64,000 nt of DNA from an uncultured Bacteroidota bacterium (GTDB lineage Bacteria; Bacteroidota; Bacteroidia; AKYH767-A; OLB10). Below are positions 3,295 to 56,680 of the stretch, in pieces. Made by a program: the position numbers and the translations under genes. Under the pieces are notes generated by a model, which was given only the letters and a program-made list of their open reading frames with translations, was not told where the DNA came from and made no database searches. The DNA is taken from assembly GCA_963814475.1 (NCBI GenBank), contig CAWFDA010000046.1, forward strand, positions 666,940 to 730,939, written 5' to 3'. Each line of letters begins with the position of its first letter. Positions within the stretch are counted from its first letter, which is position 1.

Positions 3295-3312
3295 TGATAA
3301 TGCTTTCATAAG

Positions 3313-8984: not shown

Positions 8985-9029
8985 TTTTTTAGGTTTTTAG
9001 TTTGTTCTTTTTAAGGATTGTTTGAAATA

Positions 9030-29161: not shown

Positions 29162-30313
29162 TTACAATGTCCCTCGGCGGGCTTGTTCTGCTTCGATGGA
29201 TTCAAACAAAGCTTTAAAGTTTCCTTTCCCGAAGGACTTTGCTCCTTTGCGTTGAATAATTTCAAAGAATAATGTGGGACGATCTTCAACCGGTTTAGTA
29301 AATATTTGTAATAGGTATCCTTCTTCATCACGGTCTACCATAATTCCGAGTTTTTTCAACACTTCCATATCTTCTTCAATGATTCCTACTCTTTCAGCAA
29401 CGGTATCATAGTAGGAACCGGGAACGTAGAGAAATTCTACCCCTCGTTTGCGCATTTCAGCAATAGTTAAAACAATATTATTAGTTGCAACAGCTATATG
29501 TTGACAACCGGGTCCCTTATAAAAATCCAGATATTCTTCGATCTGAGATTTCTTTTTGCCATAGGCAGGTTCATTTATTGGAAATTTGATTCGTCCGTTA
29601 CCATTCGACATCACCTTACTCATAAGCGCAGTGTATTCAGTGGAAATATCTTTGTCATCAAAGGTAACCAAGTTGGCGAATCCCATTATTTCTTCATAGA
29701 ATTTTGCCCATTTGTTCATTCCTCCAAGTTCAACATTACCCACCATGTGATCAACATATTCGAGTCCGGCCGAAACGGGATTATATTCTGATTCCCACTT
29801 AACAAACCCGGGAAGAAAAACTCCATTGTAAGCTTAACGCTCTACAAAAATGTGAAGTGTTTCGCCATAGGTATGAATTCCCGACATCACCACTTTCCCA
29901 TTGTCATCTTCAATGGTTTTTGGTTCCATAAAAGGCTTTGCTCCTCTTTTAACTGTTTCATTAAAAGACTTAGTTGCATCATCCACCCACAAAGCAATAA
30001 CTTTAACACCATCGCCATGCAAACGAATGTGATGAGAAATTTCACTATCAGGATCCATTGGTGTAGTGAGAACAAGTCGAATTTTTCCTTGTTGCAGAAC
30101 ATATGAAGTACGATCACGACTACCGGTTTCTAATCCCCGATAAGCAAGTGATTGAAACCCAAAAGCTGTTTTGTAATAATGAGCTGCTTGCTTCGCATTG
30201 CCTACATACAATTCCACATAGTCGGTACCATTGATAGGCAAAAAATCTTGTGCTTTTTCAAACACTTTATCTCCGGAGTAGGAGTAATTTTGTACTGTTT
30301 TAAGATTGTCCAT
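29162..30313 (-). pseudogene. hppD: 4-hydroxyphenylpyruvate dioxygenase split into two ORFs by a frameshift near 29746-29834.
   Basis: The N-terminal half (29834-30313) and C-terminal half (29162-29746) are both typical VOC-fold HPPD sequences ending ...[16 protein letters not shown]. Confidence 0.75.
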
Positions 30314-36168: not shown

Positions 36169-37220
36169 TTACAGCCCCTCTTTTACAGCAGGAATCACTT
36201 TCGAACCAATTAAATTTATAGACTCCTTCAACTGATCATGAGATAATCCAGCATTTTCCATTTGAAAAGTAAGTCTAGAAATTCCACCCAGTGCTTTACT
36301 ATGACGAAGTATTTTTTCCGCCACTTCATCAGGATCACCCACTATTAAAGCACCTCTAGCACCGGTTTGTGAATCAAAATGAGGACGTGTTACAGGCGGC
36401 CATCCCCGTTCTTTGCCAATTCGTGTAAATGTTTCGGCATAACCCGGGATAATAATTTTCAACAGCTTCTTTAGAATTTGCAGCAACGTACCCAAGAGAA
36501 TGGAATCCCACTTTGAGTTTGTCTGGGGAGTGACCGGCTAATTGCCGGCTTGTCTGTATACATCAACCAGCGGACCGAAAACGATGTGTTTCTCCACCAA
36601 TAATTGCAATCATTAAAGGTAGTCCCAATATTCCAGCTCTGACAAATGATGCCGGTGTACCTCCTACTCCAAGCCAAATTGGCAATGGATCTTGCAGTGG
36701 TCGTGGATAAATATTGTTGTTTTACAAGGCAGCACGAAATTTACCTGACCAGGTAACGATTCATTATCTCTTATTTTCAACAAGGAGCTCTAATTTTTCA
36801 GCAAAATAGTTCATCGTAGTCTTTAGTATTCAAAGCCAAACAAGTGGAAATGCTTCAATAAATGAACCACTTCCAACCACCATTTCAGCACGACCCTGAG
36901 AAATAAGATCGAGTGTTGCAAAATTTTGAAAGACTCTTACCGGATCGGCCGCACTCAATACTGTAACCGCGCTAGTTAGTCTGATTTCGTCTTTGTTCTG
37001 GCTGCTGCAGCTGCAAGAATAATGGTTGGTGCCGAATCAAGAAATTCCTTTCGGTGATGTTCACCAATACCAAACACATCTAGGCCGACCTGATCAGCAC
37101 ATTCAATCCGTTCTAATAAGTGAGCTAGTGCATCACTTTGCTCCGGTTTTTAGCCGTCAGCTTGAATCGACGGTGACTTGCAGAAGCAAAACTATCTATT
37201 CCTATTTCCATTTTAATTAA
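36169..37220 (-). pseudogene. LLM-class flavin-dependent oxidoreductase (luciferase-like monooxygenase), heavily frameshifted.
   Basis: The C-terminal 108 aa ORF (...GALIVGDPDEVAEKILRHSKALGGISRLTFQ...) is typical LLM. Upstream fragments are scattered across frames to about 37220. Confidence 0.6.
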
Positions 37221-37259
37221 GCGAATGTGGGAGCAGTTTCCCGGTTAAAGGACGAAATA

Positions 37260-37500
37260 ACTTCAGTTTTAAAATTTTCAGCTTTATATTTGGGTCGAAG
37301 GGAAAACTGAAGAGTTAAAATTGAAAAGTTAAAAGTACGAATTATCTTCAATTTTATTTTTTCAGTTTTCAATTTTCAATTCGCGATGAGGGCGAATTGA
37401 AGCATAAATTCAGATCAAAGCGAAAATTGAAAAGCCTGCCCGACCCCCGATAGCCTTTGCGATGATTTGGGCGGGTTAAAATTGAAAAGTACAAATAAAC
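37260..37500. repeat. Two adjacent MITE-like elements of the same TTTTCAGTTTTCAATT family.
   Basis: TTGGGTCGAAGGGAAAACTGAAG... and TTTTTTCAGTTTTCAATTTTCAATTCGCGATGAGGGCG...AAAATTGAAAAG. Confidence 0.7.
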
Positions 37501-38741: not shown

Positions 38742-39258
38742 TTATTCGCCCGTTTCTTCTTCAGTATCAGCCTTTTTAGCTTTCGCCTTTTTAGCAACCG
38801 GAGCTTCAGCAGCACCATCGCCATCGGCTTTCTTAGTTTTACCACGACGCGTAGTCTTCGCTTTCTTAGCAGGAGCAGAAGTTTCCTTCACCATCAACGT
38901 GTTATAATCAACCAACTCCATCATGCACATTTCAGCAGCATCACCAAACGATTACCTGTTTTAATGATACGGGTATATCCACCCGGACGCTCGCCGATTG
39001 TACTGGCAACATCTTTGAACAATTCTGAAACAGCTTCCTTATTTTGAAGGAAACTAAAGACAGTACGACGAGAGTGCGTAGAATCCGTTTTCGATTTAGT
39101 GATTAATGGTTCTACATACTTTGCGCAAGTGCTTTAGCTTTTGCAACCGTAGTGTTGATTCTTTTATGCAGAATCAATGAAGAAGCCATATTCGAGAGCA
39201 TCGCATCTCTGTGACTGGACGTTCTTCCTAAATGATTTACTTTTTTACCGTGACGCAT
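38742..39258 (-). pseudogene. rplQ: 50S ribosomal protein L17 with two apparent frameshifts and an A/K-rich C-terminal extension.
   Basis: [21 protein letters not shown]... from the ATG at 39258. The frame breaks near KALAQ (39150) and near GNRL (38940). The C-terminus is ORF 38742-38930. Confidence 0.7.
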
Positions 39259-39309
39259 TTTATTTAATCTTTTCTATCCTATTTGGATTTACAGGCATTC
39301 GTTTAATTA

Positions 39310-40305
39310 TCAGTCTTTTTCAAGTTTGTATTTGGAAACATTCATTCCAAAATTCAGGTTCTTACTTCTCACTAGTTCTTCCAATTCAGTAAGTGATTTT
39401 TTACCGAAATTTCTGAATTTAAGAAGGTCATTTTTAGAATAAGAAACCAGGTCTCCAAGAGTTTCAACATCAGCAGCTTTAAGGCAGTTAAGAGCTCGAA
39501 CAGAAAGATCCATATCAACCAATTTAGTTTTCAGCAACTGACGCATGTGAAGTGATGACTCATCGAACTCTTCAGTTGGAGTTTTAGGTTTGCTTTCGAG
39601 AGTGATTTTCTCATCAGAGAACAACATGAAGTGATGAATCAGAATTTCAGCTGCTTCTTTCAAGGGCATCTTTTGGATGAATAGATCCATCGGTAGCGAT
39701 TTCAAGAACCAGTTTTTCATAATCGGTCTTTCTGTTCAACCCTGTAGTTTTCTACGTTGTAACGAACGTTTCTGATTGGGGTGAAAATAGAATCGATAGC
39801 AATTGTTCCGATAGGATAGCTATTCGATTTATTCTCTTCAGCAGGAACATAACCACGACCTTTATCGATAGTGATATCAATTTGAATTTTAACACTCGTT
39901 TCCATGTTACAGATAACCAAATCAGGATTCAGAACCTGGAAAGCAGAGGTATGCTTAGCGATATCACCGGCAGTAAATTGATTTTTGCCGTTGATAGTTA
40001 CCTGAACTTTTTCAGAGTCGGTTGATTCAATTTGCTTTTTAAAGCGAACCTGCTTCAGGTTCAGAATGATTTCAGTAACGTCTTCAACAACACCCTTGAT
40101 AGTAGAAAACTCATGATCAACACCTGAAATTTTCACGGTGGTGATAGCATGACCTTCAAGAGATGAAAGGAGAATTCTCCTTAGCGCATTTCCGATAGTG
40201 ATTCCATAACCGGGTTCAAGTGGACGGAACTCAAATGTACCAAGATGTTCAGTTGGACTGAAGCATGATCACTTTATCCGGTCTTTGAAACGCTAATATT
40301 GCCAT
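39310..40305 (-). pseudogene. rpoA: DNA-directed RNA polymerase alpha subunit, split by at least 3 frameshifts.
   Basis: [17 protein letters not shown] at 40305 is followed by a frame break. ORFs 39717-40136 and 39310-39720 carry the rest (...[25 protein letters not shown]...). Confidence 0.8.
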
Positions 40306-40379
40306 TTTTATATCCTTCTTTTTTTAGTTTTTTCTTAATAATTAATCACTTCCTTCCGGGGAAGGGCACTTACAACTGA

Positions 40380-40985
40380 TTACTTAGAGTACAACTCGAC
40401 AATCAGTTGTTCTTTAATATTTTCGGTAATGTCGGCACGGGCAGGAGCACTTACGAACTTACCTTCCATTTTGCTGTCATCCCACTCTAACCAAGAATAA
40501 CGGGTGGTTCTAGATCTCAAAGATATCACCAATAACTTGTGAAGATTTTGATTTTTCTCTAACACCAACCTGATCACCTGCTTTCAGAGTATAAGAAGGA
40601 ATATTTACCACTTTACCATTCACAATAATGTGACGGTGAGAAACCAGCTGACGGGCAGCTGAACGGGTTGGAGCGATACCTAAACGATAAACCACATTAT
40701 CTAAACGTGATTCAATTAACTGAAGCAAGTTTTCACCGGTGATACCTTCTTTTCTAGAAGCACGGTCGAAAGTTTTCGCAAACTGACGCTCGAGGATTCC
40801 ATAGGTGTATTTCACCTTTTGTTTTTCCTTCAGCTGAGTAGCATATTCAGAAAGCTTTGAACGCTTCTTAGATTGTCCGTGCTGTCCCGGAGGATAGTTT
40901 CTCTTCTCGTAGTTCTTATCAGGTCCGTAAATCGGCTCTCTGAACTTTCTTGCAATCTTGGTCTTTGGTCCTATATACCTGGCCA
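40380..40985 (-). CDS. rpsD: 30S ribosomal protein S4, with an apparent frameshift near the C-terminus (~40520-40570).
   Basis: [15 protein letters not shown]... The C-terminal 40 aa (...[17 protein letters not shown]...) lie in an overlapping ORF in another frame. Confidence 0.75.
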
Positions 40986-41039
40986 TGAAATCTTGTTTTA
41001 TTAAACTTAAATAAATGCTTTGATATACTATTAAATTCT

Positions 41040-41425
41040 TCTGCGTTTTGGAGGGCGGCAACCGTTGTGTGGAATCGGAGTGATATCCACAATTTCGCTT
41101 ACTTCAAGACCTGCAGTTGTGCAAGTGTTCTGATTGCAGATTCACGTCCTGAACCTGGTCCTTTCACAAACACTTTCACTTTTCTCATACCTGCATCAAA
41201 GGCAACTTTAGAGCAATCCTGAGCAGCCAACTGAGCAGCATAAGGAGTGTTTTTCTTAGATCCTTTGAATCCCATTTTACCTGCAGAAGCCCAGGATACT
41301 ACCTGTCCGGTAGTATTGGTGATGCTAATGATGATATTGTTAAATGTAGCGTTGATATGAGCTTCGCCAACAGACTCCACTTTTACCACTCTTTTTTTAA
41401 CGGTAACTTTTGCTGTTTTTGCCAT
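41040..41425 (-). CDS. rpsK: 30S ribosomal protein S11, with an apparent frameshift about 20 codons before the end.
   Basis: 108 aa ORF. The conserved tail ...[16 protein letters not shown] is present downstream in a different frame (41040-41100). Confidence 0.75.
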
Positions 41426-41472
41426 TATCGTTATTTGTTCCCGAGTTACAATTAAGTCCCCGGATGATTATT

Positions 41473-41850
41473 TTACTTAGTTACTTTTTTCTTGTTAGCA
41501 ACAGTTTTTCTCTTACCTTTACGGGTACGACAGTTGTTTTTCGTTCTTTGTCCGCGAACAGGTAAACCAATACGGTGACGAACACCGCGGTAGCAACCGA
41601 TATCCATCAAACGTTTGATGTTTAATTGAACTTCAGAACGAAGTCCACCTTCAACTTTGATGTTATCGTTGATATACGTTCTGATTTTTGTCAGTTCATC
41701 ATCATTCCATTCCTGAACTTTTTTGCTAAAGTCGATATTACTATCGGTAAGAATTTTCTGCGCTGTTGAACGGCCTATTCCGAAGATATAGGTGAGGCCT
41801 ATTTCACCTCTTTTGTTTTTTGGTAAGTCAATACCAGCAATACGAGCCAT
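41473..41850 (-). CDS. rpsM: 30S ribosomal protein S13.
   Basis: [10 protein letters not shown]... in a 125 aa ORF. Confidence 0.9.
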
Positions 41851-41881
41851 TTATATTCCTTTAGTTATTATAATTATAGTA

Positions 41882-41998
41882 TTAACCCTGACGCATCTTA
41901 AAGCGAGGATTCTTTTTGTTGATCACATAGAGACGACCTTTACGTCTAACGATTTTGCAATCAACACTTCTTTTCTTTAATGAGGGTTTTACTTTCAT
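41882..41998 (-). CDS. rpmJ: 50S ribosomal protein L36.
   Basis: Reverse translation gives [38 protein letters not shown]. Confidence 0.85.
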
Positions 41999-42009
41999 TT
42001 GGTAATATA

Positions 42010-42228
42010 TTATTTGTACCTGTATGTAATTCTTCCTTTTGTTAAATCATAGGGTGACATTTCCACCTTTACTTTATCGCCGGGAAGAATTTTGATGTAA
42101 TTCATCCTCATTTTTCCGGAAATATGGGCTATGATCTCGTGCCCGTTTTCCAGTTCCAATCGGAACATTGCATTCGACAATGCTTCTACAATTGTTCCGT
42201 CTTGTTCGATGACTCCTTGTTTAGCCAT
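42010..42228 (-). CDS. infA: Translation initiation factor IF-1.
   Basis: 72 aa with [41 protein letters not shown].... Confidence 0.9.
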
Positions 42229-42247
42229 TCAATTTTTTGACTGTTAC

Positions 42248-43140
42248 TTATATTCTTTGCTCAGGTTTATATTTTGAGTCTTCAGCTTTTTCAATTTTTT
42301 CAAATGATGAGAGTACATCTGCTTTATTTTCTCCTATTGCAACGGTGTGTTCGAAGTGTGCGGAAGGTTTCAAATCTGTCGGTGTAACGATTGTCCATCC
42401 ATCATTCAGTTGTTTGACCTGCCTTTTTCCGGCGTTGATCATAGGTTCAATGGCTATTACCATTCCTGTTTTCAGGAGCATGCCAGTACCTTTTTTTCCG
42501 TAATTAGGAACTTCAGGTTTTTCGTGCAAGCTTCATTCCCAACTCCATGTCCAACCAATTCTCTCACTACTCCAAAGCCATTTGCTTCGGCATGATCCTG
42601 AACGGCTGCACTGATATCTCCAATCCTGCAACCTGACACTGAGCCTTTTCGATACCTATGTAAAAGGCATTCTTTGGTAACACGAATTAGATTTCGACGT
42701 TTCGGTGTTCACCTCTCCCACCGTGAATGTATACGCTGAATCTCCGAAGAAACCATCTTTTATCACACCACAATCGATAGAAACCACATCACCATCCTTT
42801 AGTTCGCGATTGCCCGGTATACCGTGTACCACTTCAGCATTGACTGAAATGCACAACGATCCGGGAAAACCACCATAGCCTTTAAAGGCAGGGATAGCTT
42901 TTTGATCTCTTATGAAGGTTTCCGCCAATGCATCAAGCTCGATGGTTTTCACACCGGGCTTAAGAATTGCGGCCACTTCCGCTAATGTATCTCCAACAAG
43001 TAAAGAACTAACTCTTATTAACTCTATTTCTTCGGGAGTTTTGTAGATAATCTGCAATTTGACTCCTTTGTTTTTATATTTTAATAATAGCAATAACCTA
43101 CTACCGGTGCCTTAAACTGCGGCTCCGACAGCAGATGCTC
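42248..43140 (-). pseudogene. map: Methionine aminopeptidase, type I, frameshifted.
   Basis: The N-terminal part (42656-43093) and C-terminal part (42248-42529) lie in different frames with a gap between them. Confidence 0.75.
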
Positions 43141-43151
43141 TGCCTTTGATT

Positions 43152-44460
43152 CTACCTGTTTTCATAAGATCCATCGTAATGACGCATCAGCAAATGACTT
43201 TCAATTTGCTGAAGCGTATCTAACACAACACCTACCAAAATCAGTAGTGAGGTTCCACCATAAAACTGTGCAAAGTTACTATTTACTCCGAAAAGTTTCG
43301 CAAATGTGGGTAAAATTGCCACAAACGCAAGGAATAATGAACCCGGTAAAGTAATTTTAGACATCACATCATCAATAAACTCAGCTGTTTTCTTACCGGG
43401 TTTAACACCGGGAATAAAACCTCCATTTTTCTTCATATCTTCAGCCATTTGATTAGGATTCACCGAAATAGCAGTATAGAAATAAGTAAAGAGGATAATC
43501 AATATTGCGAATGTAATGTTGTACCCAAAAGAGGTGAAATCAGTAAATGCACCTGCAAAACCTTGCCATGAAGCAGATTCAGGGAAAAACTGAGCGATGG
43601 TTGCCGGAATAAACATAATTGCCTGAGCAAAGATGATTGGCATTACACCTGCAGCATTAACTTTAAGAGGAATGTACTGACGAACGCCACCATATTGTTT
43701 ATTACCAACAATTTTTTTAGCAAACTGAACCGGTATTCTTCGGGTACCCTGAACCAAGAGAATTACAGCAGCCAACCACAGCAAAGAGGGCAACAATTTC
43801 AACCAGGAATACAACCAATCCACCACCTTCGTTCAAACGTGACAAGAACTCATCTCGTCAATGATTGAAGGAAGTCTGGCAATGATACCAATCATGATAA
43901 TGAAGTGATATACCATTTCCGATTCCTTTTTCAGTAATCCTCTCCCCTAACCACATTACAAATAATGTTCCTGCGGTAAGGATAAGAATGGAAGTAATCC
44001 AGAAACATGGTGCCATCCATGATGATTGCATTCAGGAGACTGTGAACGTAAATTCACAATATATCCGGGAGCCTGACCAAGAGTTACAAAACCGTAAGCC
44101 AACGGGTGATTTGATTCATTTTCTTACGACCACTTTCTCCTTCTTTCTGGAGTTTCTGGAAATAAGGAACAGCAATACCTAATAACTGCACCACAATGGA
44201 GGCAGAAATGTAAGGCATAATACCTAATGCAAAAATGGAAGCCTGCGAGAAGGCTCCTCCTGCAAACATATCAATCAATCCAAGAATTCCGCCTTCAGAC
44301 TGAGCTTGTAAATTAGCCAGTCCTGCAGGATCACACTCCGGGAAGCACAATATGTGCTCCGAGTCTGTAGATAACAATAAATCCCAAAGTGTTCAGGATT
44401 CTTGACTTTCAGATCTTCGATCTTAAAAATATTCCGAATTGTAGTTATTAGGTTCTTCAT
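43152..44460 (-). pseudogene. secY: Preprotein translocase SecY, fragmented by several frameshifts.
   Basis: ORFs 44275-44460, 44084-44377 and 43152-43826 carry SecY segments. The 43826-44084 stretch contains further out-of-frame pieces. Confidence 0.8.
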
Positions 44461-44910
44461 TTACCTGTAGCTGTAATTGTTCCACCCAGAGATTCAATAG
44501 CTGATTTTGCTGATTCTGAAAATGCATGAGCAGTGATATTCACTTTAGTTTTTAATTCACCTCTTCCAAGAATTTTAACTCTGTCGCGTCTAGAAGCAAG
44601 ACCCATTTCTACAAACACTTCGTGATTGAATATCAGTGATATTGTGTTTGTCAACCAAACCTTGAATCATATCAAGATTGACGCCGTTATATTCGATTCT
44701 GTTGAGGCTTTTGAAACCAAATTTTGGAAGTCTTCTTTGAAGTGGCATCTGACCACCTTCAAATCCAACTTTAGAGCTGTAACCAGATCTTGACTGGGCA
44801 CCTTTATGACCTCTTGTTGAAGTTCCACCACGACCGGATCCTTGTCCGCGACCGATTCTCTTTCTCGATTTTACCGAGCCTTTGGCAGGTGTTAAATTGC
44901 TAAGATTCAT
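44457..44910 (-). pseudogene. rplO: 50S ribosomal protein L15, frameshifted at ~44600-44650.
   Basis: [26 protein letters not shown]... (44590-44910). The C-terminus is in the overlapping ORF 44457-44654. Confidence 0.8.
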
Positions 44911-44944
44911 TTTAAAGAATGTCTTAAATATTGTTAATTACTGA

Positions 44945-45128
44945 TTATGCTACTTTTTCAACAGAAACGAGATGCTGAACAGATCTCAACCATTCCCAGA
45001 ATTTGTGGGGTGGCTTCTTTCTCAACCGAGTGATTCATTTTACGAATCCCGAGAGCTTTGAGCGTACGCTTTTGAACTGCGGGGCGATCGATGCCGCTTC
45101 TGATTTGTTTGATAATAACTTTTCCCAT
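44945..45128 (-). CDS. rpmD: 50S ribosomal protein L30, with a likely frameshift near the C-terminus.
   Basis: MGKVIIKQIRSGIDRPAVQKRTLKALGIRKMNHSVEKEATPQILGMVE, then ...VQHLVSVEKVA in the +1 frame. Confidence 0.7.
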
Positions 45129-45196
45129 TTTATTTCCGGAGCAAGTCCGAGATTTTATTTAAATTGATACTTAAAATAAATTCCGTAAGATATTGA

Positions 45197-45715
45197 TTAC
45201 CCTTCAAATATTCTTTGCATAGCAACTCCTCTTTGTTGAGAAACGCCAATTGCATCACGCATTTGAACGAGCGCATCGATAGTAGCTTTCACTACGTTGT
45301 GAGGGTTAGAAGAACCTTTAGATTTGGCAAGTACATCGGTAATACCAACGCTCTCCAAAACGGCACGCATGGCACCACCGGCAATTACACCGGTACCGGG
45401 AGCGGCTGGTTTCAGGAGCACAAGAGCACCACCGAATTTTCCAATTTGCTCATGAGGAACAGTGCCTTTAGCCACAGAAACCTTAACCAGGTTTTTCTTA
45501 GCATCATCAACACCTTTGCTCACTGCATCAGTAACTTCTTTTGCTTTACCAAGACCATAACCAACCACACCTTTTTCATCACCTACCACAACGATAGCTG
45601 AGAATGTAAATGCGCGACCACCTTTAGTAACTTTTGTTACCCTGTTAATTGCAACGAGCCTGTCTTTTAGCTCAATTTCACTGGTTTTAACCTTTTTTAC
45701 ATTTGATCCTAACAT
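45197..45715 (-). CDS. rpsE: 30S ribosomal protein S5.
   Basis: Intact 172 aa ORF ending with the ...AMQRIFEG-type tail. Confidence 0.9.
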
Positions 45716-45722
45716 AGTAGTC

Positions 45723-46081
45723 TTAGAATTTTAATCCTGCGTTTCTTGCACCTTCAGCAAGTGATTTAACACGTCCGTGATAAAGGTAGCCTCCACGGTC
45801 AAAAATTACATCGGTTAGTCCGGCAGCCATGGCTCTTTCGCCAAGCAACTTTACCAACTACAGATGCTTCTTCAATTTTACTTTTGTTCCACTTCAGCGA
45901 TTTCTTCTTCGCGTGAGGAAGCTGCTAACAGCGTTTTACCGGCTTCATCATCGATTAGCTGGGCATAAATCTGCTTATTGCTTCTAAACACCGACAAACG
46001 AGGGCGAGTAGAGGTTCCGGTTACAATCCTACGGATTCTTTTACGGATGCTTTTTCTTCTTATTACTTTTCTGGATTCCAT
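45723..46081 (-). pseudogene. rplR: 50S ribosomal protein L18, frameshifted after ~67 codons.
   Basis: The N-terminus is ORF 45878-46081. The C-terminus ...[28 protein letters not shown] lies in another frame and ends at 45723. Confidence 0.8.
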
Positions 46082-46089
46082 TGAATCAA

Positions 46090-46646
46090 TTATTTTTTAG
46101 CAGCTGACTTACCAGCTTTACGTCTTAATGTTTCACCTACGAATTTAATACCTTTTCCTTTGTAAGGCTCAGGCACTCTTAAAGAGCGGATTTTAGCGGC
46201 AACCTGCCCGAGAAGTTGTTTATCGTAACTTTCGAGGGTAATGATTGGGTTCGAACCTCTTTCCTGACGGGTAGCAACTTTGATTTCGGTAGGCAATTCA
46301 AAAACCACATGGTGAGAATAACCTAAAACGAGATCCAGCAATTGCCCTTGATTGGTAGCACGGTAACCCACACCTACTAATTCCTGCTCCACTTTATAAC
46401 CGGTAGTAACACCTGTATCATGTTGGCAATAAGAGAACGGTAAAGACCGTGCAATGCCTTATGTCTTTTTTGTTCGGTAGCTCTTTCAACAAGCAATGTC
46501 AGAACCTTCAACTTTCACTGATACTCCATCTTCCAGCTTTTGGTCGAGTGTACCTTTTGGTACCTTTAACGGTAACATCAGATCCTTTAAGATCGATGGT
46601 CACCCCTGCAGGGACAGGTATCGGGTAATTTTCCTATACGGGACAT
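46090..46646 (-). pseudogene. rplF: 50S ribosomal protein L6, with a frameshift near the N-terminus.
   Basis: MSRIGKLP at 46646, then a frame break. The remaining 100 aa are in ORF 46090-46392, and the intervening segment is out of frame. Confidence 0.8.
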
Positions 46647-46667
46647 ATTCTAAAACTTATTATTTGA

Positions 46668-47066
46668 TTAATAAACTAAACATAAAACTTCACCACCAAT
46701 ATTATTACGACGGGCTTCTTTATCGGTCATCATACCTTGAGAGGTAGAAACGATTGCAATTCCAAGACCGTTCAATACTCTTGGTATTTCTTCAGCTCCG
46801 GAATATTTTCTAAGACCGGGCTTACTCACTCTTTCAATTTTCTTAATTGCAGAAAGCTTAGTAACCGGATTGTACTTAAGGGCAATTTTAATATTTCCCT
46901 GATGGTTTTCAGTTTCTTCAAACTTGTAATTGAGGATATAACCTTTATCGTAAAGGATTTTGGTTATTTCTTTTTTAATGTTGGATGCAGGAACCTCCAC
47001 AATTCTATGGTTTGCCTTCAGTGCGTTGCGCAATCTGGTCAGGTAATCTGCTATCGGATCTGTCAT
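46668..47066 (-). CDS. rpsH: 30S ribosomal protein S8.
   Basis: Intact 132 aa ORF with MTDPIADYLTRLRNA.... Confidence 0.9.
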   Translation of the reverse strand: MTDPIADYLTRLRNALKANHRIVEVPASNIKKEITKILYDKGYILNYKFEETENHQGNIKIALKYNPVTKLSAIKKIERVSKPGLRKYSGAEEIPRVLNGLGIAIVSTSQGMMTDKEARRNNIGGEVLCLVY

Positions 47067-47104
47067 GGTATGATGTATCTTATATTAATTCTGAATGTTA
47101 TGAA

Positions 47105-47374
47105 TTACCAGCTGGCTTTAGTAACACCTGCAATTTTACCTTCAAGTGCCATTTTGCGGAACAGCACGCGAGAAATTCCAAATTGTCTCATATAACCACG
47201 TGGTCGACCTGTGAGGAGGCAACGGTTATGAAGACGAACAGGAGAAGCGTTCTTAGGAAGTCTGCTTAATCCTTCATAGTCGTTAGCTGCTTTAAGGGCT
47301 GCACGTTTATCTGCATATTTTGCTACTGCTCTGGCGCGTTTGCGTTCCCTGGCTTTTACTGATTCTTTTGCCAT
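47105..47374 (-). CDS. rpsN: 30S ribosomal protein S14.
   Basis: 89 aa ORF with [13 protein letters not shown].... Confidence 0.9.
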
Positions 47375-47379
47375 TTATA

Positions 47380-47932
47380 TTAATTTGTTTTAAACGGAAT
47401 ACCAAATTCTTTCAAGAGGTGAAAAGCCTCATCATCGGTTTTAGCGGAGGTCACGAAAGTGATATCCATACCTGTAATTTTGTTCACTTTATCGATATCG
47501 ATTTCAGGGAAAATAATTTGCTCGGTAACACCAAGGGTATAATTTCCTTGTCCGTCGAAGCCTTTGTTATTAACACCTTTGAAATCACGAATCCTAGGCA
47601 AAGCAACAGCGATAAGACGATCGAGGAATTCATACATTACTTCATCACGCAAAGTAACTCTAACACCCACATTCACATCTTTACGTAATTTGAAGTTCGA
47701 AATATCTTTTTTCGATTTAGTAGGAACAGCTTTTTGTCCGGTTATATTCGACATTTCATTGATAGCATATTCTATCAATTTCTTATCGGTAACAGCATCA
47801 CCAACACCCTGATTCATACAAATTTTCAACAAACGTGGAACTTGCATCGGGCTTTTGTAGGAGAACCTGTCTTTCAGGTTTTTAACGATCTCCTTCTTAT
47901 ATTTTTCTTTAAGTCTAGGTGCTGTGAGACAT
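47380..47932 (-). CDS. rplE: 50S ribosomal protein L5, with an apparent frameshift within the first ~5 codons.
   Basis: ORF 47380-47847 begins at MQVPRL. Upstream, in frame, is [24 protein letters not shown], and the ATG at 47932 is out of frame. Confidence 0.75.
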
Positions 47933-48270
47933 TACTTGATTACCTCCTTTGATTTTTTAGCGTATCTAACCAATTTACCATCGACTGCTTTACGGCCAAC
48001 TCTTGTAGTTTTTCCTGATGAAGGATCTACGAGCATCACATTTGAGACATGAATAGCAGCTTCTTGCTTCACTATACCACCTTGGGTATTTTTAGCATTA
48101 GGTTTCGTGTGTTTAGAAACGAGATTAACTCTTTCAACAATCACTTTACGATCGCTCAAATTTACTTCGAGCACTTTACCTTGCTGACCTTTACTTTCGC
48201 CTGCTATCACTTTTACGGTATCGCCTTTTCTGATCTTCAGTTTAGGCTGTTCATTACTTTTTCTTTCCAT
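47932..48270 (-). CDS. rplX: 50S ribosomal protein L24.
   Basis: 112 aa with the KOW motif [13 protein letters not shown]. Confidence 0.9.
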
Positions 48271-48638
48271 TATAACACCTCCGGAGCTAAGGATACAATT
48301 TTCATATACTGTTTTTCACGAAGCTCTCTTGCTACAGGCCCGAAGATACGAGTACCTCTGAGTTCATCGTTGGCATTAAGCAACACCACAGCATTATCAT
48401 CAAAACGGATATAAGAACCGTCATTTCTTCTTACTTCTTTGCTTACCCTAACCACAACGGCTTTAGAAACGGTACCTTTTTTAATATTACCTGCGGGGAT
48501 TGCGTGCTTCACAGTCACAACAATTTTATCGCCCAGGCTGGCATATCTTTTTCTGGTACCTCCCAGTACGCGAATACACAACACCTCTTTGGCGCCACTA
48601 TTATCCGCTACGGTAAGTCTGGATTCCTGCTGAATCAT
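48270..48638 (-). CDS. rplN: 50S ribosomal protein L14.
   Basis: [18 protein letters not shown]... Confidence 0.9.
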
Positions 48639-48667
48639 TTTCTTATGAGTTCTTTATGAGTAACTTA

Positions 48668-48940
48668 TTATTTAGCTTTTTCAAGAATTTCAACCAATCT
48701 CCAGCGCTTATTTTTGCTGATAGGACGGGTTTCCATGATACGAACTTTATCACCAATTCCGCAGGTATTATCCTGGTCGTGGGCCATAAACTTCACAGAT
48801 TGACTGATGAACTTCCCATAAATGGCGTGTTTCACCTTACGTTCCACCATCACCACAATAGACTGTTGCATCTTATTGCTGGTAACGATTCCTATTTTCT
48901 CTTTGCGGAGAGGTCTTTGTAATTCTACAGACATGGTCAA
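48668..48940 (-). CDS. rpsQ: 30S ribosomal protein S17.
   Basis: 90 aa placed between L29 and L14 in S10-operon order. Confidence 0.85.
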
Positions 48941-49153
48941 TTATTTCTTTGTTTCGGATTGAGAAGCCATTTGACGCTTCTTGAATTCAGTTTCTAACCG
49001 AGCAATCAAACGACGTGATGCTCTAATTTTAAGAGGGTTCTCGATAGGAGAAACCGCATGGCTCATTTTCAATTTGGCGTAGATCCCACGTTCTTCAGCA
49101 ATCCGATCGCGGACTTCATCTGTGGTAAGATCTTTAACTATATCCTGTTTCAT
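48941..49153 (-). CDS. rpmC: 50S ribosomal protein L29.
   Basis: 70 aa with MKQDIVKDLTTDEVRDRIAEE.... Confidence 0.85.
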   Translation of the reverse strand: MKQDIVKDLTTDEVRDRIAEERGIYAKLKMSHAVSPIENPLKIRASRRLIARLETEFKKRQMASQSETKK

Positions 49154-49190
49154 TTTATCAGTATTCTCTGTTATAAATTAAATTGAACGA

Positions 49191-49613
49191 CTATTGTCCG
49201 TCGTAATCTCTACGAACAATGAAGCGGGTAATGACCGGCAATTTTTGAGCGGCCAAACGGAGGGCTTCTTTAGCGGTAGCTAAAGGCACACCATCGGCTT
49301 CGAACAAGATTCTACCCGGTTTTACTACAGCCACCCAATATTCAGGGGCACCTTTTCCTTTACCCATACGAACCTCTGCAGGTTTTCTGGTAATAGGTTT
49401 ATCGGGAAATACGCGGATCCAGATCTGCCCTTCACGTTTCATGAAGCGGGTCACTGCAACACGAGCTGCTTCCAATTGACGGGAAGTTAGCCATGCTGTA
49501 TCCAATGATTTCAATCCGAAAGATCCGAAAGCCACTTCAGCACCACGGGTAGCATTCCCCTTGGCTTTCATTTTGTGCATCTTCCGGAATTTCGTCTTCT
49601 TCGGCTGTAACAT
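49191..49613 (-). CDS. rplP: 50S ribosomal protein L16.
   Basis: [19 protein letters not shown]... Confidence 0.9.
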
Positions 49614-49658
49614 CTTTATTCAGTTATTATTAAAATTCTTGAAACTAAAAACTACTTA

Positions 49659-50411
49659 TTATCTATTTCTTTTTTCTCTTTTATTGTCTCTGCGATCACC
49701 ACCTTTACGATCGGAAGGACCACCTTGAGGACCGCCCTTGGTTTTAGTTTGACTGTTCATTCCGATATTCGGAGAAAGGTCACGTTTTCCAAAAACTTCA
49801 CCTTTACAGATCCACACTTTCACTCCAATTTTACCGTAAGTAGTTTGAGCTTCGGCGATAGCGAAATCGATATCTGCGCGGAACGTATGCAAAGGAGTAC
49901 GTCCTTCTTTATATTGTTCAGTACGTGCCATTTCAGCACCACCTAAACGACCGGCAACCATAACTTTGATCCCTTCAGCACCCATTCTCATGGTAGAGGC
50001 AACAGAAGTTTTAACAGCACGACGGAAAGAAATCCTTGCTTCCAGCTGACGAGCGATACTTTCTGCTACCAACTGAGCATCTAATTCCGGTCTTTTTATT
50101 TCGTAGATGTTAATTTGAACATCTTTTTTGGTAAGTTTTTTTAATTCTTCTTTGATACGGTCTACTTCAGTTCCACCTTTTCCGATAACGATACCGGGAC
50201 GAGCAGTATTAATAGTAACAGTGATCAGCTTTAAGGTACGCTCAATGATGATTTTTGACACCCCACCTTTAGCGAGACGTGCCATCAGGTAATTCCTGAT
50301 TTTCTCATCTTCAACCAGTTTTTCAGCATAGTTTTTCCCACCATACCAGTTGGAGTCCCATCCTCTGATGATTCCTAAACGATTACCTATCGGATTAGCC
50401 TTTTGTCCCAT
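49659..50411 (-). CDS. rpsC: 30S ribosomal protein S3 with an R/G-rich C-terminal tail.
   Basis: [18 protein letters not shown]... with KH and S3-C domains. Confidence 0.9.
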
Positions 50412-50432
50412 TCTATAGTTGACTATTAATAA

Positions 50433-50858
50433 TTAATTAGCTGTTGTAGTTTCTACCTGAACAGCGGTTTTACTGTCGAGGATTAAAGTAATATGATTTG
50501 AACGTTTGCGAACGCGGTGACCTCGTCCTTGCGGAGCTGTTCTAAGACGTTTCAACTGACGACCACTATCGATAAAAACATCTTTCACAAACAAGTCGTG
50601 TTCTTCGATACGCTGACCATCATTTTTTGCTTGCCAGTTGGCTATTGCAGAAAGCAGAACTTTTTCAAGTCGGCCGGCAGCTTCTTTCGTGCTAAACTTC
50701 AAAGAATTCAACGCGGTTTCTACTTGCTTACCACGGATCATATCGGCTACCAGACGCATTTTGCGTGGTGAGGTAGGACAATTGCTGAGACGTGCCAATG
50801 AAGTTTCCTTCATAACCTCTTTTCTCGCATTTGCGGATGTACGTTTCCTTGCTCCCAT
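50433..50858 (-). CDS. rplV: 50S ribosomal protein L22 (Bacteroidota-type N-terminal extension).
   Basis: [14 protein letters not shown]...[15 protein letters not shown]... Confidence 0.9.
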
Positions 50859-50860
50859 TA

Positions 50861-51139
50861 TTATTTCGATGCTTTATCTTTATTACCTGAGTGACCTCTG
50901 AAAGTACGGGTAGGTGAAAATTCTCCCAATTTATGACCAACCATATTTTCGGTTACATACACAGGGATAAATTTATTTCCATTATGAACAGCCATAGTAT
51001 GTCCTACAAATTCAGGAGCAATCATTGATCTTCTAGACCAAGTTTTGATCACAGTTTTCTTTTTGGCATCATTCATTGTACTTACCTTCTTATCCAACTT
51101 ATAGTCGATAAACGGACCTTTTTTCAGTGAGCGACTCAT
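50861..51139 (-). CDS. rpsS: 30S ribosomal protein S19.
   Basis: [15 protein letters not shown]... Confidence 0.9.
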
Positions 51140-51184
51140 TATAACTTAATAGATTATGTCTTTTTATTTAAAGTCTTTATTTAA

Positions 51185-52009
51185 TTACTTTTTACGACGT
51201 TCAACAATGTAACGATCGGAAGGATGGTTTTTCACCCGTGTTTTAAGTCCTTTCGTGTACAACCCTTTTCTTGATCTTGGGTGACCTCCGGAAGCTCTAC
51301 CTTCACCTCCACCCATTGGGTGATCAACAGGATTCATGGCAACACCACGAACACGTGGGCGACGGCCCATCCAACGAACGCGACCTGCTTTACCATGACT
51401 TTCCTTATTATGGTCGGAATTAGAAACAGAACCGATAGTTGCCAAACAAGTCACCAGAATTAATCTAGTTTCGCCTGAAGGCATTTTAATGGTAGCATAT
51501 TTTCCATCACGGGCAGCAAGCTGCGCGTATGCACCGGCACTTCTCGACATTTTACCACCTTGACCCGGGCGCAATTCCAAATTGTGGATTAATGTTCCAA
51601 GTGGAACATCTTTCAAGAAAAGAGCATTTCCTACATCAGGGGTTGCACCTTCACCGGCAAGAACAGTCATTCCTGTTTTGAGGCCATTAGGAGCAATAAT
51701 ATATCTTTTCTCTCCATCAGCATAATGAATCAATGCGATGTTTGCTGTTCTGTTTGGATCGTACTCAATAGTAGCTACTGTTCCGGGAATACCTTGCTTA
51801 TCTCTTTTAAAGTCGATGATCCTCAGTTTTTTCCTGTGGCCACCACCAATATAACGCATGGTCATTTTACCTGAGTGGTTACGACCACCTGAACGGGATT
51901 TAGTAACCACTAAAGATTTTTCGGGACGTGACGCAGTAATTTCGTCATTATCGATCACGACTTTATGTCGCTGACCCGGTGTCATTGGGCGTAATTTTTT
52001 GATAGCCAT
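51185..52009 (-). CDS. rplB: 50S ribosomal protein L2.
   Basis: 274 aa with [17 protein letters not shown].... Confidence 0.95.
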
Positions 52010-52027
52010 CTCTTTACTTATTCTATA

Positions 52028-52318
52028 TTAAATATTGCTATAAAAATCAATTGTTTCACCTGCTTTCAAAGTCACGAATGCCTTTTTAAATGCAGAAGTT
52101 TTCCCTTTAGTAAATCCGGTATTGGTACCTCTGGTTCTAACTTTACCCGTGTAGTTCATGGTGTTTACATCCACTACCACAACATTGTACATGTCTTGAA
52201 CAGCTTTTTTAATTTGGATTTTATTAGCCCTTGGATTTACGATGAAACCATAGCGACCAAATTTCTCGGTCGAACGGGTCATTTTTTCAGTTATTATAGG
52301 CTTTTGCAGGATATTCAT
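52028..52318 (-). CDS. rplW: 50S ribosomal protein L23.
   Basis: 96 aa placed between L4 and L2. Confidence 0.85.
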
Positions 52319-52944
52319 TTCGCTAATGTTTTTTCAATTACAGTCAATGAGCCTTCAACCAATACGAGGTTCTGAGCATTCAAAATATCGTAAGTATTTA
52401 GATCTGAAGCATTTACAACTTTACTGTGTCCTAAATTTCGGGACGACAAATATACGTTTTTGTTTGATTCAGAAAGCACAAATAGTGTTTTTTTATCGTT
52501 AAGCTCCAAACCTTTCAGCACGTTCACATAATCTTTAGTCTTAACAGCGTTCATATCGAGGTTTTCGATAACAGTAATTCCGTTAGCTTTTGCTTTATGG
52601 CTGAGGGCAGAAATTCTTGCCAAGCGCTTCACTTTTTTGTTCAATTTGAAAGAGTAGTCTCTTGGTTCAGGACCAAAGACACGACCACCGCCCACATAAA
52701 GAGGCGATTTTCTGCTACCTGAACGAGCACCACCGGTACCTTTTTGACGTTTGAACTTCTTGGTAGTACCATGAACTTCATTACGTTGTTTAGATTTATG
52801 AGTACCTTGACGTTGGTTCGCAAGAAATTGCTTTACATCGAGATAGATCGCATGATCATTTGGTTCAACTCCAAAAATTTCCGCATTCAGCGTAATTTTT
52901 CTGCCGGTATCTTTACCTGAAGATTGTTTTACGTTCAGTTCCAT
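52315..52944 (-). CDS. rplD: 50S ribosomal protein L4.
   Basis: 209 aa placed after L3, with the typical G/R-rich loop. Confidence 0.9.
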
Positions 52945-52945
52945 T

Positions 52946-53563
52946 TTAAATCTCTATTGTAATGTAAGATCCTTTTGCTCCTGGGATTGCACCTTTTAGC
53001 AGAACGATATTTTGTTCAGGAATTATTTTAACTATCTGAAGGTTCACCAATTTAACATTATCGCCACCCATACGACCGGCCATGCGCATTCCTTTGAATA
53101 CACGTGAAGGCCAAGAGGATGCTCCCAAAGAACCGGGGGCACGAAGTCTGTTATGCTGACCGTGAGTTTGTCCACCAACACCGGAGAATCCATGACGTTT
53201 AACAACGCCTTGAAATCCTTTTCCTTTGGAAACACCAACCACATCACAATACATTCCTTCTTCTAATATTTCAACGGAAACTTGATCACCGATTGCATAT
53301 TCTTTTTGGAACCCTTTGAACTCGATCACTTTCCTTTTTGGGGTAGTGTTCGCTTTGGCAAAGTGACCTTTCAATGCAGCGGGAGTATTTTTCTCCTTGC
53401 GTTCACCGTATGCCAATTGGATAGCTGAATAGCCATCCTTATCGCTGGTCCTTACTTGTGTCACTACACAAGGGCCTGCTTCGACAACGGTGCACGGGAT
53501 GTTTTTTCCTTCAGCATCGAATATGCTGGTCATCCCTATTTTTTTACCGATTAAACCTGACAT
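52946..53563 (-). CDS. rplC: 50S ribosomal protein L3.
   Basis: [16 protein letters not shown]... Confidence 0.9.
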
Positions 53564-53613
53564 TTTAATCTATTTTATACTTTATTTAAATTCAATTAAT
53601 TAGCAACAACTAC

Positions 53614-53919
53614 CTAAACTTTAATTTCAACCTCTACTCCACTTGGTAGTTCGAGTTTCATGAGTGCATCTACGGTCTTAGCGGTTGAGCTGTAGATATC
53701 CAGAAGTCTTTTGTAAGAGCATAACTGGAATTGTTCACGTGCTTTTTTGTTCACGTGTGGTGAACGCAGCACGGTATAAATTTTCTTCTCGGTAGGAAGA
53801 GGAATAGGTCCATTCACTACCGCTCCTGTGGTTTTCACAGTTTTCACGATTTTTTCGGCTGACTTATCAACCAAGTTGAAATCGTAAGATTTTAATTTAA
53901 TTCTGATTCTCTGACTCAT
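53614..53919 (-). CDS. rpsJ: 30S ribosomal protein S10.
   Basis: [13 protein letters not shown]... Confidence 0.9.
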
Positions 53920-53957
53920 GATTTTATAAAGAACGATTGTTTATTTATCCTGATGAA

Positions 53958-56096
53958 TTAAACTGATGCAGTTTTACCTTTTCCTTTTACTTTAGCAATC
54001 ACCTCTTCTGAGAGATTCTTAGGAACCTCAGCATAATGAGAAAACTCCATAGTAGAAGAGGCACGACCTGAAGTGATGGTACGCAACTGAGTCACATAAC
54101 CAAACATTTCAGAAAGTGGCACTTTAGCTTTCACCACTTGAGCACCGCCTTTAGAGTCCATACCTTCTACTTGTCCACGGCGACGGTTAAGATCACCAAC
54201 CACATCACCCATGTTTTGATCAGGGGTAATTACTTCCAGCTTCATGATTGGCTCAAGAAGAACAGGGCGGCAATGAGGTAACGCTTCGCGATAAGCAGTA
54301 CGAGCACAAATTTCGAATGATAATGAATCGGAATCGACTGCGTGGTAAGAACCATCGATCAATCGAACCTTTAAAGTTTGGATTGGATATCCTGCAAGTA
54401 CACCATTTACCATGGCAGCTTTAAATCCTTTTTCAACAGAAGGAATAAATTCGCGAGGAATGTTACCACCGGTAATTTCATTTTCGAACTGCAAGCCACC
54501 ATTTTTATCGGTTGGTTCAAAATCGGCATCTACAGGAGAGGCAACAAATTTAATATCGGCAAACTTACCACGACCACCTGTTTGTTTCTTGTAAACTTCA
54601 CGGTGTTCGTAAGTACCATTAATAGCTTCTTTGTAATTCACCTGAGGGGCACCTTGATTCACTTCCACTTTAAACTCGCGACGCATACGATCCACGATAA
54701 TTTCAAGGTGAAGTTCGCCCATTCCACTAATGATAGTCTGACCTGTTTCCTCATCAGTTCTAACGCGGAAAGTAGGATCTTCTTCAGAAAGTTTACCTAA
54801 GGCAACGCCCATTTTATCCATGTCTACCTGAGTTTTGGCTTCGATGGCGAGACCGATAACGGGCTCAGGGAAATTCATGGCTTCGAGAACGATAGGTGCA
54901 TTTTCAGCACACATAGTATCTCCGGTTTTAATATCTTTAAATCCTACAGCTGCACCAATATCACCGGCTTCAATAAAAGGAATCTGGTTTTGTTTATTGG
55001 CATGCATTTGGAAGATACGAGAGATACGTTCTTTGTTTCCGGAACGGGTATTTAAAATGTAAGAACCTGACTCCAATTTACCTGCATAGCAACGGAAGTA
55101 AGCTAAGCGACCCACAAAAGGATCGGTAGCAATTTTAAAAGCTAGAGCGGTAAAAGGCTCTGTATTGCTTGGCTTGCGTGTTACAGCTTCACCGGTATCA
55201 GGATTTGTTCCGATAATATGTTCTTTATCCATTGGTGAAGGCATTAATTCCATCACCAAATCAAGCATTGTTTGAACACCTTTATTTTTAAATGCAGAAC
55301 CACAAAGCATTGGGACCACTTTATTAGCGATACAAGCTTTACGGAGGGCATTAAGAATTTCACTCTCAGTGATTGATTCAGAGTCGGCGAAATATTTCTC
55401 CATAAGAGACTCGTCAAATTCAGCAATAGCTTCCAATAACTTCTCACGCCATTCTTTCACTTCTTCCTTCATATCATCAGGAATGGGAACCTCGGTGAAG
55501 GTCATTCCCTGATCAGCTTCATTCCAAATGATACCACGGTTATTGATAAGATCAACAACACCTTTAAAATGCTCTTCAGCACCAATAGGCAATTGCAAAG
55601 GAAGTGGGTTACCACCTAACACTTCACGAACCTGCTTAACAACGTTTAAGAAGTCAGCACCGGCACGATCCATTTTATTAACAAAACCCAAGCGGGTAAC
55701 ATTATAATTATTTGCAAGGCGCCAGTTAGTTTCAGACTGAGGTTCAACACCATCCACTGAAGAGAAAAGAAAAACTAACCCATCAAGTACACGCAAAGAA
55801 CGATTTACTTCAACAGTAAAATCAACGTGACCAGGGGTATCAATAATATTAATTTTATAATTCTCGTCGCGATATTTCCAAAAACAGGTAGTAGCAGCCG
55901 AAGTAATTGTAATACCTCTTTCCTGCTCCTGAACCATCCAGTCCATAGTAGCAGCACCATCGTGAACCTCACCAATTTTATGAGTTACGCCTGTATAATA
56001 AAGAATACGCTCGGTAGTGGTAGTCTTACCCGCATCAATGTGGGCAGCAATACCAATATTTCGTACGTAATTTAAGTTTTTAATGTCTAGTGCCAT
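53958..56096 (-). CDS. fusA: Elongation factor G.
   Basis: 712 aa with [15 protein letters not shown] and DTPGHVDF motifs. Confidence 0.95.
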
Positions 56097-56151
56097 TGGT
56101 CAATACTCTATTCTTGATTTTCGGTTGCCTGTTTCTGATATAATTAATTTA

Positions 56152-56619
56152 CTAAACTCTGAAGTGAGAGAAAGCTTTATTTGCTTCAGCCATTCTGTGA
56201 GTATCATCTTTCTTTTTCACTGCAGCACCTTCGCCTTTAGCAGCGGCGATGATTTCACCTGCGAGTTTATCCTTCATTGACTTTTCATTACGTTTTCTTG
56301 CATACATAATAAGCCATTTCATACCCAAAGCAGCTTTGCGGTCTGTTCTGATCTCACTTGGGATCTGAAAAGTGGCACCACCTACTCTACGGCTTTTCAC
56401 CTCAACAGCCGGCATAACGTTTCCGAGTGCCTTTTTGAAGGCTTCAAGACCATTTTCCTTGGTACGATTTTCCACTACTTCAATAGCATCGTAGAAGGTT
56501 GCAAAAGCAGTACTTTTTTTACCATCATACATAAGACTATTTACAAACCGGGTAACGGTTGTGTCGTTAAACTTCGGGTCAGGAAGCAGCAGACGTTTTT
56601 TAGGTTTTGACTTTCTCAT
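56152..56619 (-). CDS. rpsG: 30S ribosomal protein S7.
   Basis: [20 protein letters not shown]... Confidence 0.9.
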
Positions 56620-56680
56620 TTATATATACTGTAATGAACTATCTAATTTTGTTTATTGGTACTTTATATAAGGTGAAAAA

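Follow-up and report, generated by a model that had tools for sequence, protein, structure and literature searches.

The window, the whole 64-kb stretch of DNA analysed here, is part of a contig of 730,939 bp and carries the spc and alpha ribosomal operons on its minus strand. We located frame breaks by frameshift-aware protein-to-DNA alignment, using as reference the intact proteins of L081, a MEGAHIT contig with 91% nucleotide identity over window positions 58603-38741. Between 38742 and 47932, 11 of the 18 genes of these operons needed frame repair: rplE, rplF, rplR, rpmD, rplO, secY, map, rpsK, rpsD, rpoA and rplQ. The features of the stretch and of the adjoining control block are given below, where +1 denotes a single extra base.

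38742..39258, minus strand, rplQ (L17): +1 at about 39129 and about 39116, -1 at about 38947.
39310..40305, minus strand, rpoA: three +1 events, at about 40251, about 39731 and about 39664.
40380..40986, minus strand, rpsD (S4): +1 at about 40524.
41031..41425, minus strand, rpsK (S11): +1 at about 41125 and about 41115; the truncated ORF of 108 aa is publicly deposited.
41473..42228, minus strand, rpsM, rpmJ and infA: intact, inside the affected stretch.
42244..43057, minus strand, map (methionine aminopeptidase): at least 4 events, with +1 at 42697, 42534, 42530 and 42280; further lesions are an out-of-frame garbled segment at 42634-42661 and an extra in-frame triplet at 42379-42386.
43112..44460, minus strand, secY: 10 events, nine +1 (44409, 44333, 44030, 44005, 43902, 43865, 43858, 43773 and 43169) and one -1 (44089).
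44457..44910, minus strand, rplO (L15): +1 at about 44628.
44945..45128, minus strand, rpmD (L30): +1 at about 44987.
45197..45715, minus strand, rpsE (S5): intact.
45723..46081, minus strand, rplR (L18): +1 at about 45892 and about 45846.
46090..46646, minus strand, rplF (L6): +1 at 46625, 46561 and 46497, -1 at 46415.
46668..47374, minus strand, rpsH and rpsN: intact.
47380..47932, minus strand, rplE (L5): +1 in codon 4, at about 47923, the final error before the clean block.
47932..57088, minus strand, clean control block of 16 genes from rplX to rpsL (S10): 0 frameshifts, with a similar range of dN/dS.

The alignment yielded 32 frameshift events, 28 of which were a single extra base (P = 2e-5 vs 1:1), with four -1 events amid the +1 majority. 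Counted as stray single extra bases, those in the ribosomal-protein, SecY and RpoA genes came to about 40 in total. The frame switches were also visible with tblastn when the proteins of three relatives were used as queries. The first-pass annotation of this DNA had named the same eleven genes as frameshifted, and tblastn and the frameshift-aware alignment agree with it on genes and places; its break points at 39150, 38940, 40250, 44620, 44990, 45880 and 46620 all match located events. Its statement that almost every gene was hit is too broad for a stretch in which rpsN, rpsH, rpsE, infA, rpmJ and rpsM are intact, and its figure of one to four corrections per gene is too low for secY and map. 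The four genes it had described as undamaged, fusA (712 aa), tamB (1658 aa), rplB and rpsC, are indeed intact.

The breaks were clustered. All 32 events fell in 8.66 kb of reference-checked coding sequence vs 0 in the adjoining 8.76 kb (P about 2e-10), and the index of dispersion across the 64-kb window was 4.7 (P about 6e-17). Lesions were patchy at the 10-kb and the sub-kb scale alike, with sharp cluster edges and patches of 1-10 kb beside error-free sequence. Even within the patch, about 7 events were expected in the six unbroken genes and 0 were observed (P about 9e-4). A reference-free frame caller, a Viterbi procedure based on codon usage that is too crude for event counts, marked the same patches. 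We rejected GC content as a cause because the patch and the clean block both have a GC content of 0.39-0.42, and gene conservation because the S10 block is equally conserved yet clean. Rfam and tRNA scans gave no match, and therefore no RNA feature accounts for the region.

Lesions were also found elsewhere in the window.

2425..3309, minus strand, speB (agmatinase): a +1/-1 pair close to the N-terminus, at about 3279 and about 3263 respectively.
3313..4509, minus strand, sucC: four pieces, with three +1 events at about 4176, about 4010 and about 3793.
10329..11103, plus strand, OMP beta-barrel gene: four ORF pieces, in frames 0, 1, 2 and 1.
29162..30313, minus strand, hppD: no frameshift; a single in-frame TAA at 29834-29836.
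36169..37300, minus strand, LLM-class (luciferase-like) oxidoreductase: three events in the C-terminal half (36580, +1; 36543, -1; 36448, +1).

The N-terminal half of the LLM oxidoreductase gene is fragmented too, and the last piece of the OMP gene (115 aa) is identical to P0121 in a public collection. Pfam searches on the short fragments gave one Bac_luciferase match and weak OMP_b-brl_2 matches. Breaks in sucC, speB and the OMP gene had been called correctly from the sequence, the first of them in four pieces, but the frameshift claimed for hppD is not present. The TAA of hppD aligns with residue T or K of solved HppD structures. Separately, an ORF6N gene carries a -1 event at about 24486. 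The hppD stop codon and the ORF6N event are other lesion types and may be genuine.

For comparison at base level we used contigs 89-94% identical to the window, obtained by an exact-RplN look-up; GTDB representatives, with at most 86% amino acid identity on SecY, are too distant for this and served for tblastn only. A search for an independent conspecific assembly found none, the nearest relatives being 89-94% identical. Every gene was of canonical length in L081 and in seven related contigs (L081-L088), and none of the frame-break sites was shared with relatives at this identity. In a three-way alignment of the window with L081 and L082 over 39223-47932, the window had 47 private inserted bases in 38 events, compared with 0 private inserted bases in L081 and 2 in L082; over 47933-51328 the window had 0.

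Once the extra bases were removed, amino acid identity to L081 was 0.94-1.00 and the corrected frames had no stop codons. The dN/dS in corrected frames was 0.01-0.13 vs 0.00-0.15 in the intact S10 block. There was no non-synonymous excess, and the private-substitution ratio of the window relative to L081 was 1.69 in clean sequence and 1.78 in the patch. Because amino acid identity and dN were unchanged, the patch's surplus of window-private substitutions must be mostly synonymous; this surplus is thus a matter of biological divergence rather than of random error. On these grounds we rejected substitution errors accompanying the insertions.

These results bear on the hypothesis that the insertions are real and that the operon is a recently inactivated, degenerate duplicate, with an intact copy elsewhere supplying the essential functions. 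The frameshifts are truly in the deposited sequence, and the comparison covered only the 64-kb window of the genome, which is compatible with a second copy. As in the pseudogene decay of, for example, host-restricted bacteria, there are several frameshifts per gene. However, the broken genes lie in their canonical place, continuous with the intact S10 operon, and in corrected frames their dN/dS (at most 0.13, not near 1) and amino acid identity equal those of the intact neighbours. We found neither relaxed selection nor nonsense codons, nor any deletion beyond a few bases, and the roughly 40 indels came without the several hundred random substitutions expected from true decay. Bacterial pseudogenes reportedly show a deletion bias, whereas 28/32 events here are insertions. 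The genes hit in the operon are essential and single-copy, and the unrelated single-copy sucC, speB, OMP and LLM oxidoreductase genes carry the same type of lesion. We consider a degenerate duplicate highly improbable.

The inserted bases had a distinct sequence character. Outside any base run were 24/33, and the longest run including the inserted base was 3, therefore slippage is excluded. Tests for a concentration of indels in homopolymers, the typical residual profile of ONT, HiFi or 454 data, and for long A/T homopolymers at the frameshifts, as in rescue by transcriptional slippage, were both negative, with runs of only 1 to 3. We also looked for a motif common to the insertion sites and found none. 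Without a change of frame, translation would meet its first stop 0-44 codons past the event (median 8) and not at the shift site, unlike at prfB-type sites; the prfB-type programmed +1 signature (a slippery or hungry-codon motif, a stop at the shift, retention in relatives) was absent when tested for.

These properties count against a second hypothesis, that the DNA truly carries the extra bases and that the cell gets past them by massive programmed +1 frameshifting, transcriptional slippage or nucleotide-deleting RNA editing. The nearly uniform +1 sign would suit one decoding mechanism, if the bases are real, and a +1 frame change is needed to make the protein in prfB-type frameshifting and in the poly(A/T) slippage of endosymbionts as well. 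In contrast to those systems, there is here no slippery or stop motif and no homopolymer, the sites are unconserved among relatives, genes carry up to 10 of them, and four -1 events are intermixed; secY alone would require 10 consecutive recoding events. We regard such a bypass as barely conceivable, and consider it just as improbable that a free-living Bacteroidota bacterium would still make SecY, RpoA and ribosomal proteins by deletional RNA editing or pervasive +1 recoding of lone extra nucleotides at dozens of places with no common motif.

The lesions are insertion-rich, non-homopolymer, motif-less, private and clustered, a combination at odds with pseudogene decay, programmed frameshifting and slippage. 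Judging from the sequence comparisons, the frame breaks are very probably errors of the deposited assembly (roughly 90%), and the genes themselves would be normal, functional Bacteroidota chromosome genes. The first-pass annotation had likewise favored assembly error over biology, and this stands: relatives are intact, purifying selection persists, and the lesions are private, insertion-biased, motif-less and patchy. Its description of an indel-rich stretch holds for a local error patch, but the patch is rich in insertions and is not homopolymer-linked.

Several fragment ORFs exactly match singleton entries that come from one NCBI/ENA contig of 730,939 bp, namely those of S11, L15, L5 and L18, as well as the RpoA C-terminus, the SucC N-terminus, and pieces of the OMP and LLM oxidoreductase. 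As the truncated ORFs stand verbatim in public collections, the errors already belong to the assembly as deposited and did not arise at a later step. The contig would contain patches of uncorrected consensus errors, nearly all of them single extra bases, and these probably originated in a consensus built from noisy long reads where coverage or polishing was poor. Gene-fragmenting indels of long-read assemblies (PMC12007338, Kastor; PMC8812927, Polypolish; PMC8103633) are alike in that conserved genes are cut by single-base indels into neighbouring ORFs, the relatives have unbroken copies, errors survive failed polishing, and truncated ORFs enter databases. The literature cases are mainly homopolymer-length errors with ONT deletions dominant; here 28/32 events are insertions, 24/33 inserted bases are outside runs, and patches of 1-10 kb lie beside error-free sequence. 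The usual residual errors of ONT and HiFi assemblies are homopolymer indels, mostly deletions (PMC12007338, PMC8812927). The sequencing platform and the error mechanism behind the insertions are a guess, because non-homopolymer insertions differ from this profile.

Within the assembly-error reading, we weighed two origins of the extra bases. In the first, they would be random insertions left uncorrected where noisy long reads from a single pass gave thin coverage, with no strain polymorphism involved; the source would be PacBio-CLR-like reads or long reads bridging a hybrid assembly, and we give this origin about even odds. Single-pass PacBio errors are insertion-rich. The insertion-dominated, homopolymer-independent spectrum with little surplus substitution is consistent with such an origin, as are the sharp block edges, which match read-span or bridge boundaries. 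A contig of 731 kb implies long reads, and the initial single-pass PacBio error rate is about 13% (PMC12007338). Moreover, the two relatives compared, L081 and L082, show no variation at the majority of insertion sites.

Random insertion does not predict several other observations, which suggest instead that a substantial share of the insertions could be stacked alleles, where strains carrying X or Y were co-assembled and the consensus wrote XY. Among 32 isolated insertions, 5 formed a tandem of the exact L081 and L082 bases for one site, compared with 1.26 expected (P = 0.008). For 14/20 insertions, two alternative deletions give the same peptide, so that the site is synonymous-adjacent, vs 43.5% in simulations (P = 0.015). 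The inserted base was unlike both neighbours in 24/33 cases vs about 0.53-0.55 expected (P about 0.02). These three statistics are modest (P 0.008-0.02) and mutually non-independent. Insertion density also correlated with the density of window-private substitutions (rho 0.57, P = 0.001), whose surplus in the patch is mostly synonymous, and this is unexpected if errors fell at random. We hold stacked alleles to be a tentative explanation, somewhat short of even odds. If it is true, non-homopolymer +1 insertions beside synonymous sites are a signature of a mixed-strain consensus.

Phylogenomics and completeness estimates use ribosomal proteins, SecY and RpoA as standard markers, and 11 such genes here would be annotated as pseudogenes or as split ORFs; split ORFs are already in public protein collections as singleton clusters. 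Annotating the 730,939-bp contig requires frameshift-aware gene calling or re-polishing. We conclude that the frame breaks are almost certainly an artefact without biological significance and that their relevance is to annotation quality alone.

The window is a segment of a Bacteroidota chromosome whose nearest GTDB representatives, 'Sphingobacteriales' and Bacteroidota MAGs, reach at most 86% amino acid identity in SecY. It carries the following locus:

57088 down to 38742, minus strand: str-S10-spc-alpha ribosomal super-operon, then carA
37515-38645: carA, intact, between a gene for an LLM-class oxidoreductase and rplQ

In tblastn searches with proteins from three relatives, matches from rpsJ (S10) to rplX (53.9 to 47.9 kb) stayed in a single frame throughout, whereas frame switches were found in rplQ, rpoA, rpsD, rpsK, map, secY, rplO, rpmD, rplR and rplF, and in the first codons of rplE. 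Several related metagenome contigs were found by exact look-up of the window RplN. One of these, L081, is a 38-kb short-read contig with 91.0% nucleotide identity across window 58603-38741 and canonical length for all 33 genes. The gap list of the L081-window alignment shows that coding-region gaps from 47924 to 38947 are nearly all single extra window bases; from 48 to 57 kb, the coding gaps comprise only one in-frame 3-nt difference and a compensated pair in fusA.

We placed the events by frameshift-aware protein-to-DNA alignment with L081 proteins as reference and obtained 32 across 11 genes, 28 of them +1 (an extra window base) and four -1 (a missing base):

rplE: 1 event
rplF: 4 events
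rplR: 2 events
rpmD: 1 event
rplO: 1 event
secY: 10 events
map: 4 events and a garbled stretch
rpsK: 2 events
rpsD: 1 event
rpoA: 3 events
rplQ: 3 events

The same alignment placed no event in rpsN, rpsH, rpsE, infA, rpmJ or rpsM within this patch, nor in any of the 16 genes of the adjoining clean block. Over the checked coding sequence, this amounts to 32 events per 8.66 kb of patch versus 0 per 8.76 kb of its neighbour (P about 2e-10). The six spared patch genes had 0 events versus about 7 expected (P about 9e-4), and the window-wide index of dispersion in 2-kb bins was 4.7 (P about 6e-17). These counts bear out the cluster of frameshifts in ribosomal-operon genes reported by the first-pass annotation.

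Elsewhere in the window, further lesions and an intact cassette were found:

3313-4509: sucC, three +1 insertions
speB: a +1 and a -1 event separated by 16 nt, close to the N-terminus
10329-11103: OMP gene, four pieces
36169-37300, minus strand: LLM-class (luciferase-like) flavin oxidoreductase, at least three frameshifts
29834-29836, minus strand: TAA in hppD (4-hydroxyphenylpyruvate dioxygenase), a single in-frame stop in an otherwise full-length gene with no frameshift
24153-24676 and 24715-25188: tandem ORF6N-domain paralogues
34900-35828, plus strand: intact two-gene toxin-antitoxin cassette

The first-pass annotation had listed sucC, speB, the OMP gene and hppD as frameshifted and had omitted the LLM-class gene. 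The first three calls were confirmed, but hppD carries only the TAA, at a position that aligns with T or K in solved HppD structures. Unlike the insertions elsewhere in the window, this is a substitution-type lesion, and it could be a true nonsense mutation or a substitution error. Measured against the second copy, which is intact, the first ORF6N paralogue carries a -1 frameshift near 24486 and may be a true pseudogene rather than an assembly error. The antitoxin is of the Xre/MbcA/ParS type (PF20432 and PF09722) and overlaps the RES-domain toxin (PF08808) by 4 nt. Long genes between the patches are unbroken, including fusA and tamB (1658 aa), both correctly described earlier as uninterrupted, an Omp85-domain protein (775 aa), carA and others.

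Repeats make up a further part of the window:

1218-2189: tandem repeat, about ten copies of an 80/93-nt unit
34628-34797: two copies of a related 82-nt unit
9028-9371: intergenic array, about 22 copies of the 15-nt unit GTGACCAGTGTTTTA, flanked by a peptidase-like gene and an SDR gene

The first repeat has a 266-nt super-unit (98% identity) and a core palindrome, CTCGTCCCACGCCTTATGGCCAGCGCTTCAGACGAG, and it drew spurious ORF calls on both strands. We rejected a CRISPR array because the entire unit repeats without unique spacers; the repeat looks REP- or MITE-like. The 15-nt array also shows 29-nt and 49-nt periods.

Had true pseudogene decay produced some 40 indels, substitutions in the hundreds, most of them non-synonymous, would be expected alongside them, together with nonsense codons and a bias towards deletion. 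The patch showed no mass of non-synonymous substitutions, no nonsense codons and no deletion bias. Gene decay is very unlikely: removal of the extra columns left window proteins 94-100% identical to those of L081, with no stop codon. The dN/dS of the corrected patch genes against L081 (0.01-0.13) was indistinguishable from that of the intact S10 block (0.00-0.15). When the window was aligned jointly with L081 and a second related contig, L082, private inserted bases in the patch numbered 47 in the window, 0 in L081 and 2 in L082, and the ratio of window-private to L081-private substitutions was the same in both blocks (1.69 in the clean block, 1.78 in the patch). Decoding of the extra bases by recoding is also very unlikely: the sites have no common motif. 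Such a reading would need ten events in secY alone. No insertion site is common to the window and its relatives, 24 of 33 single inserted bases lie outside any base run (longest run, 3), and in the unshifted frame the next stop comes 0-44 codons past the event (median 8).

Residual long-read errors are chiefly homopolymer-length indels, mostly deletions for ONT (PMC12007338, PMC8812927), whereas the window shows insertions outside homopolymers, limited to patches. At 47924, 47100, 46498, 44631 and 43170, the window has a tandem of exactly the L081 and L082 bases for that one site (5 of 32 observed versus 1.26 expected; P = 0.008), and the flanks of 46498 switch from L082-like to L081-like alleles. 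Two alternative deletions give the same peptide at 14 of 20 isolated insertions, compared with 43.5% in simulation (P = 0.015). An inserted base unlike both neighbours is commoner than expected, and insertion density tracks window-private substitution density (rho 0.57), the private-substitution excess in the patch being mostly synonymous. These tests, modest and overlapping, hint that some insertions are both alleles of a polymorphic site placed next to each other. Most insertion sites are invariant in both relatives. An equally plausible source is random insertion error carried over from noisy reads, either where the stretch was thinly covered or left unpolished, or where a long read bridged a hybrid assembly.

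L082-like alleles (B/n) made up 3.0% in the patch (39223-47932) versus 2.0% in the clean block (47933-51328), and window-private alleles (W/n), mostly synonymous, 5.3% versus 3.4% over the same intervals; L081-like sites did not rise in the patch over the clean block. Sequence comparison suggests that patch and clean block come from slightly different haplotypes, via recombination or a chimeric consensus.

Exact matches in a public collection were found for truncated ORFs of S11 (108 aa), L15 (106 aa), L5 (155 aa) and L18 (67 aa), the RpoA C-terminus (136 aa), the SucC N-terminus (115 aa), the last OMP piece and an LLM fragment. Every one of these truncated ORFs is on a single 730,939-bp NCBI/ENA contig, and no ORF carries a name; the errors are already present in the public record.

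To the extent that sequence by itself can show, these results support the earlier proposal of an error-rich assembly stretch; the error profile is refined to mostly insertions outside homopolymers. We conclude that the frameshift cluster is not a biological feature, and that the errors may be linked to strain polymorphism.
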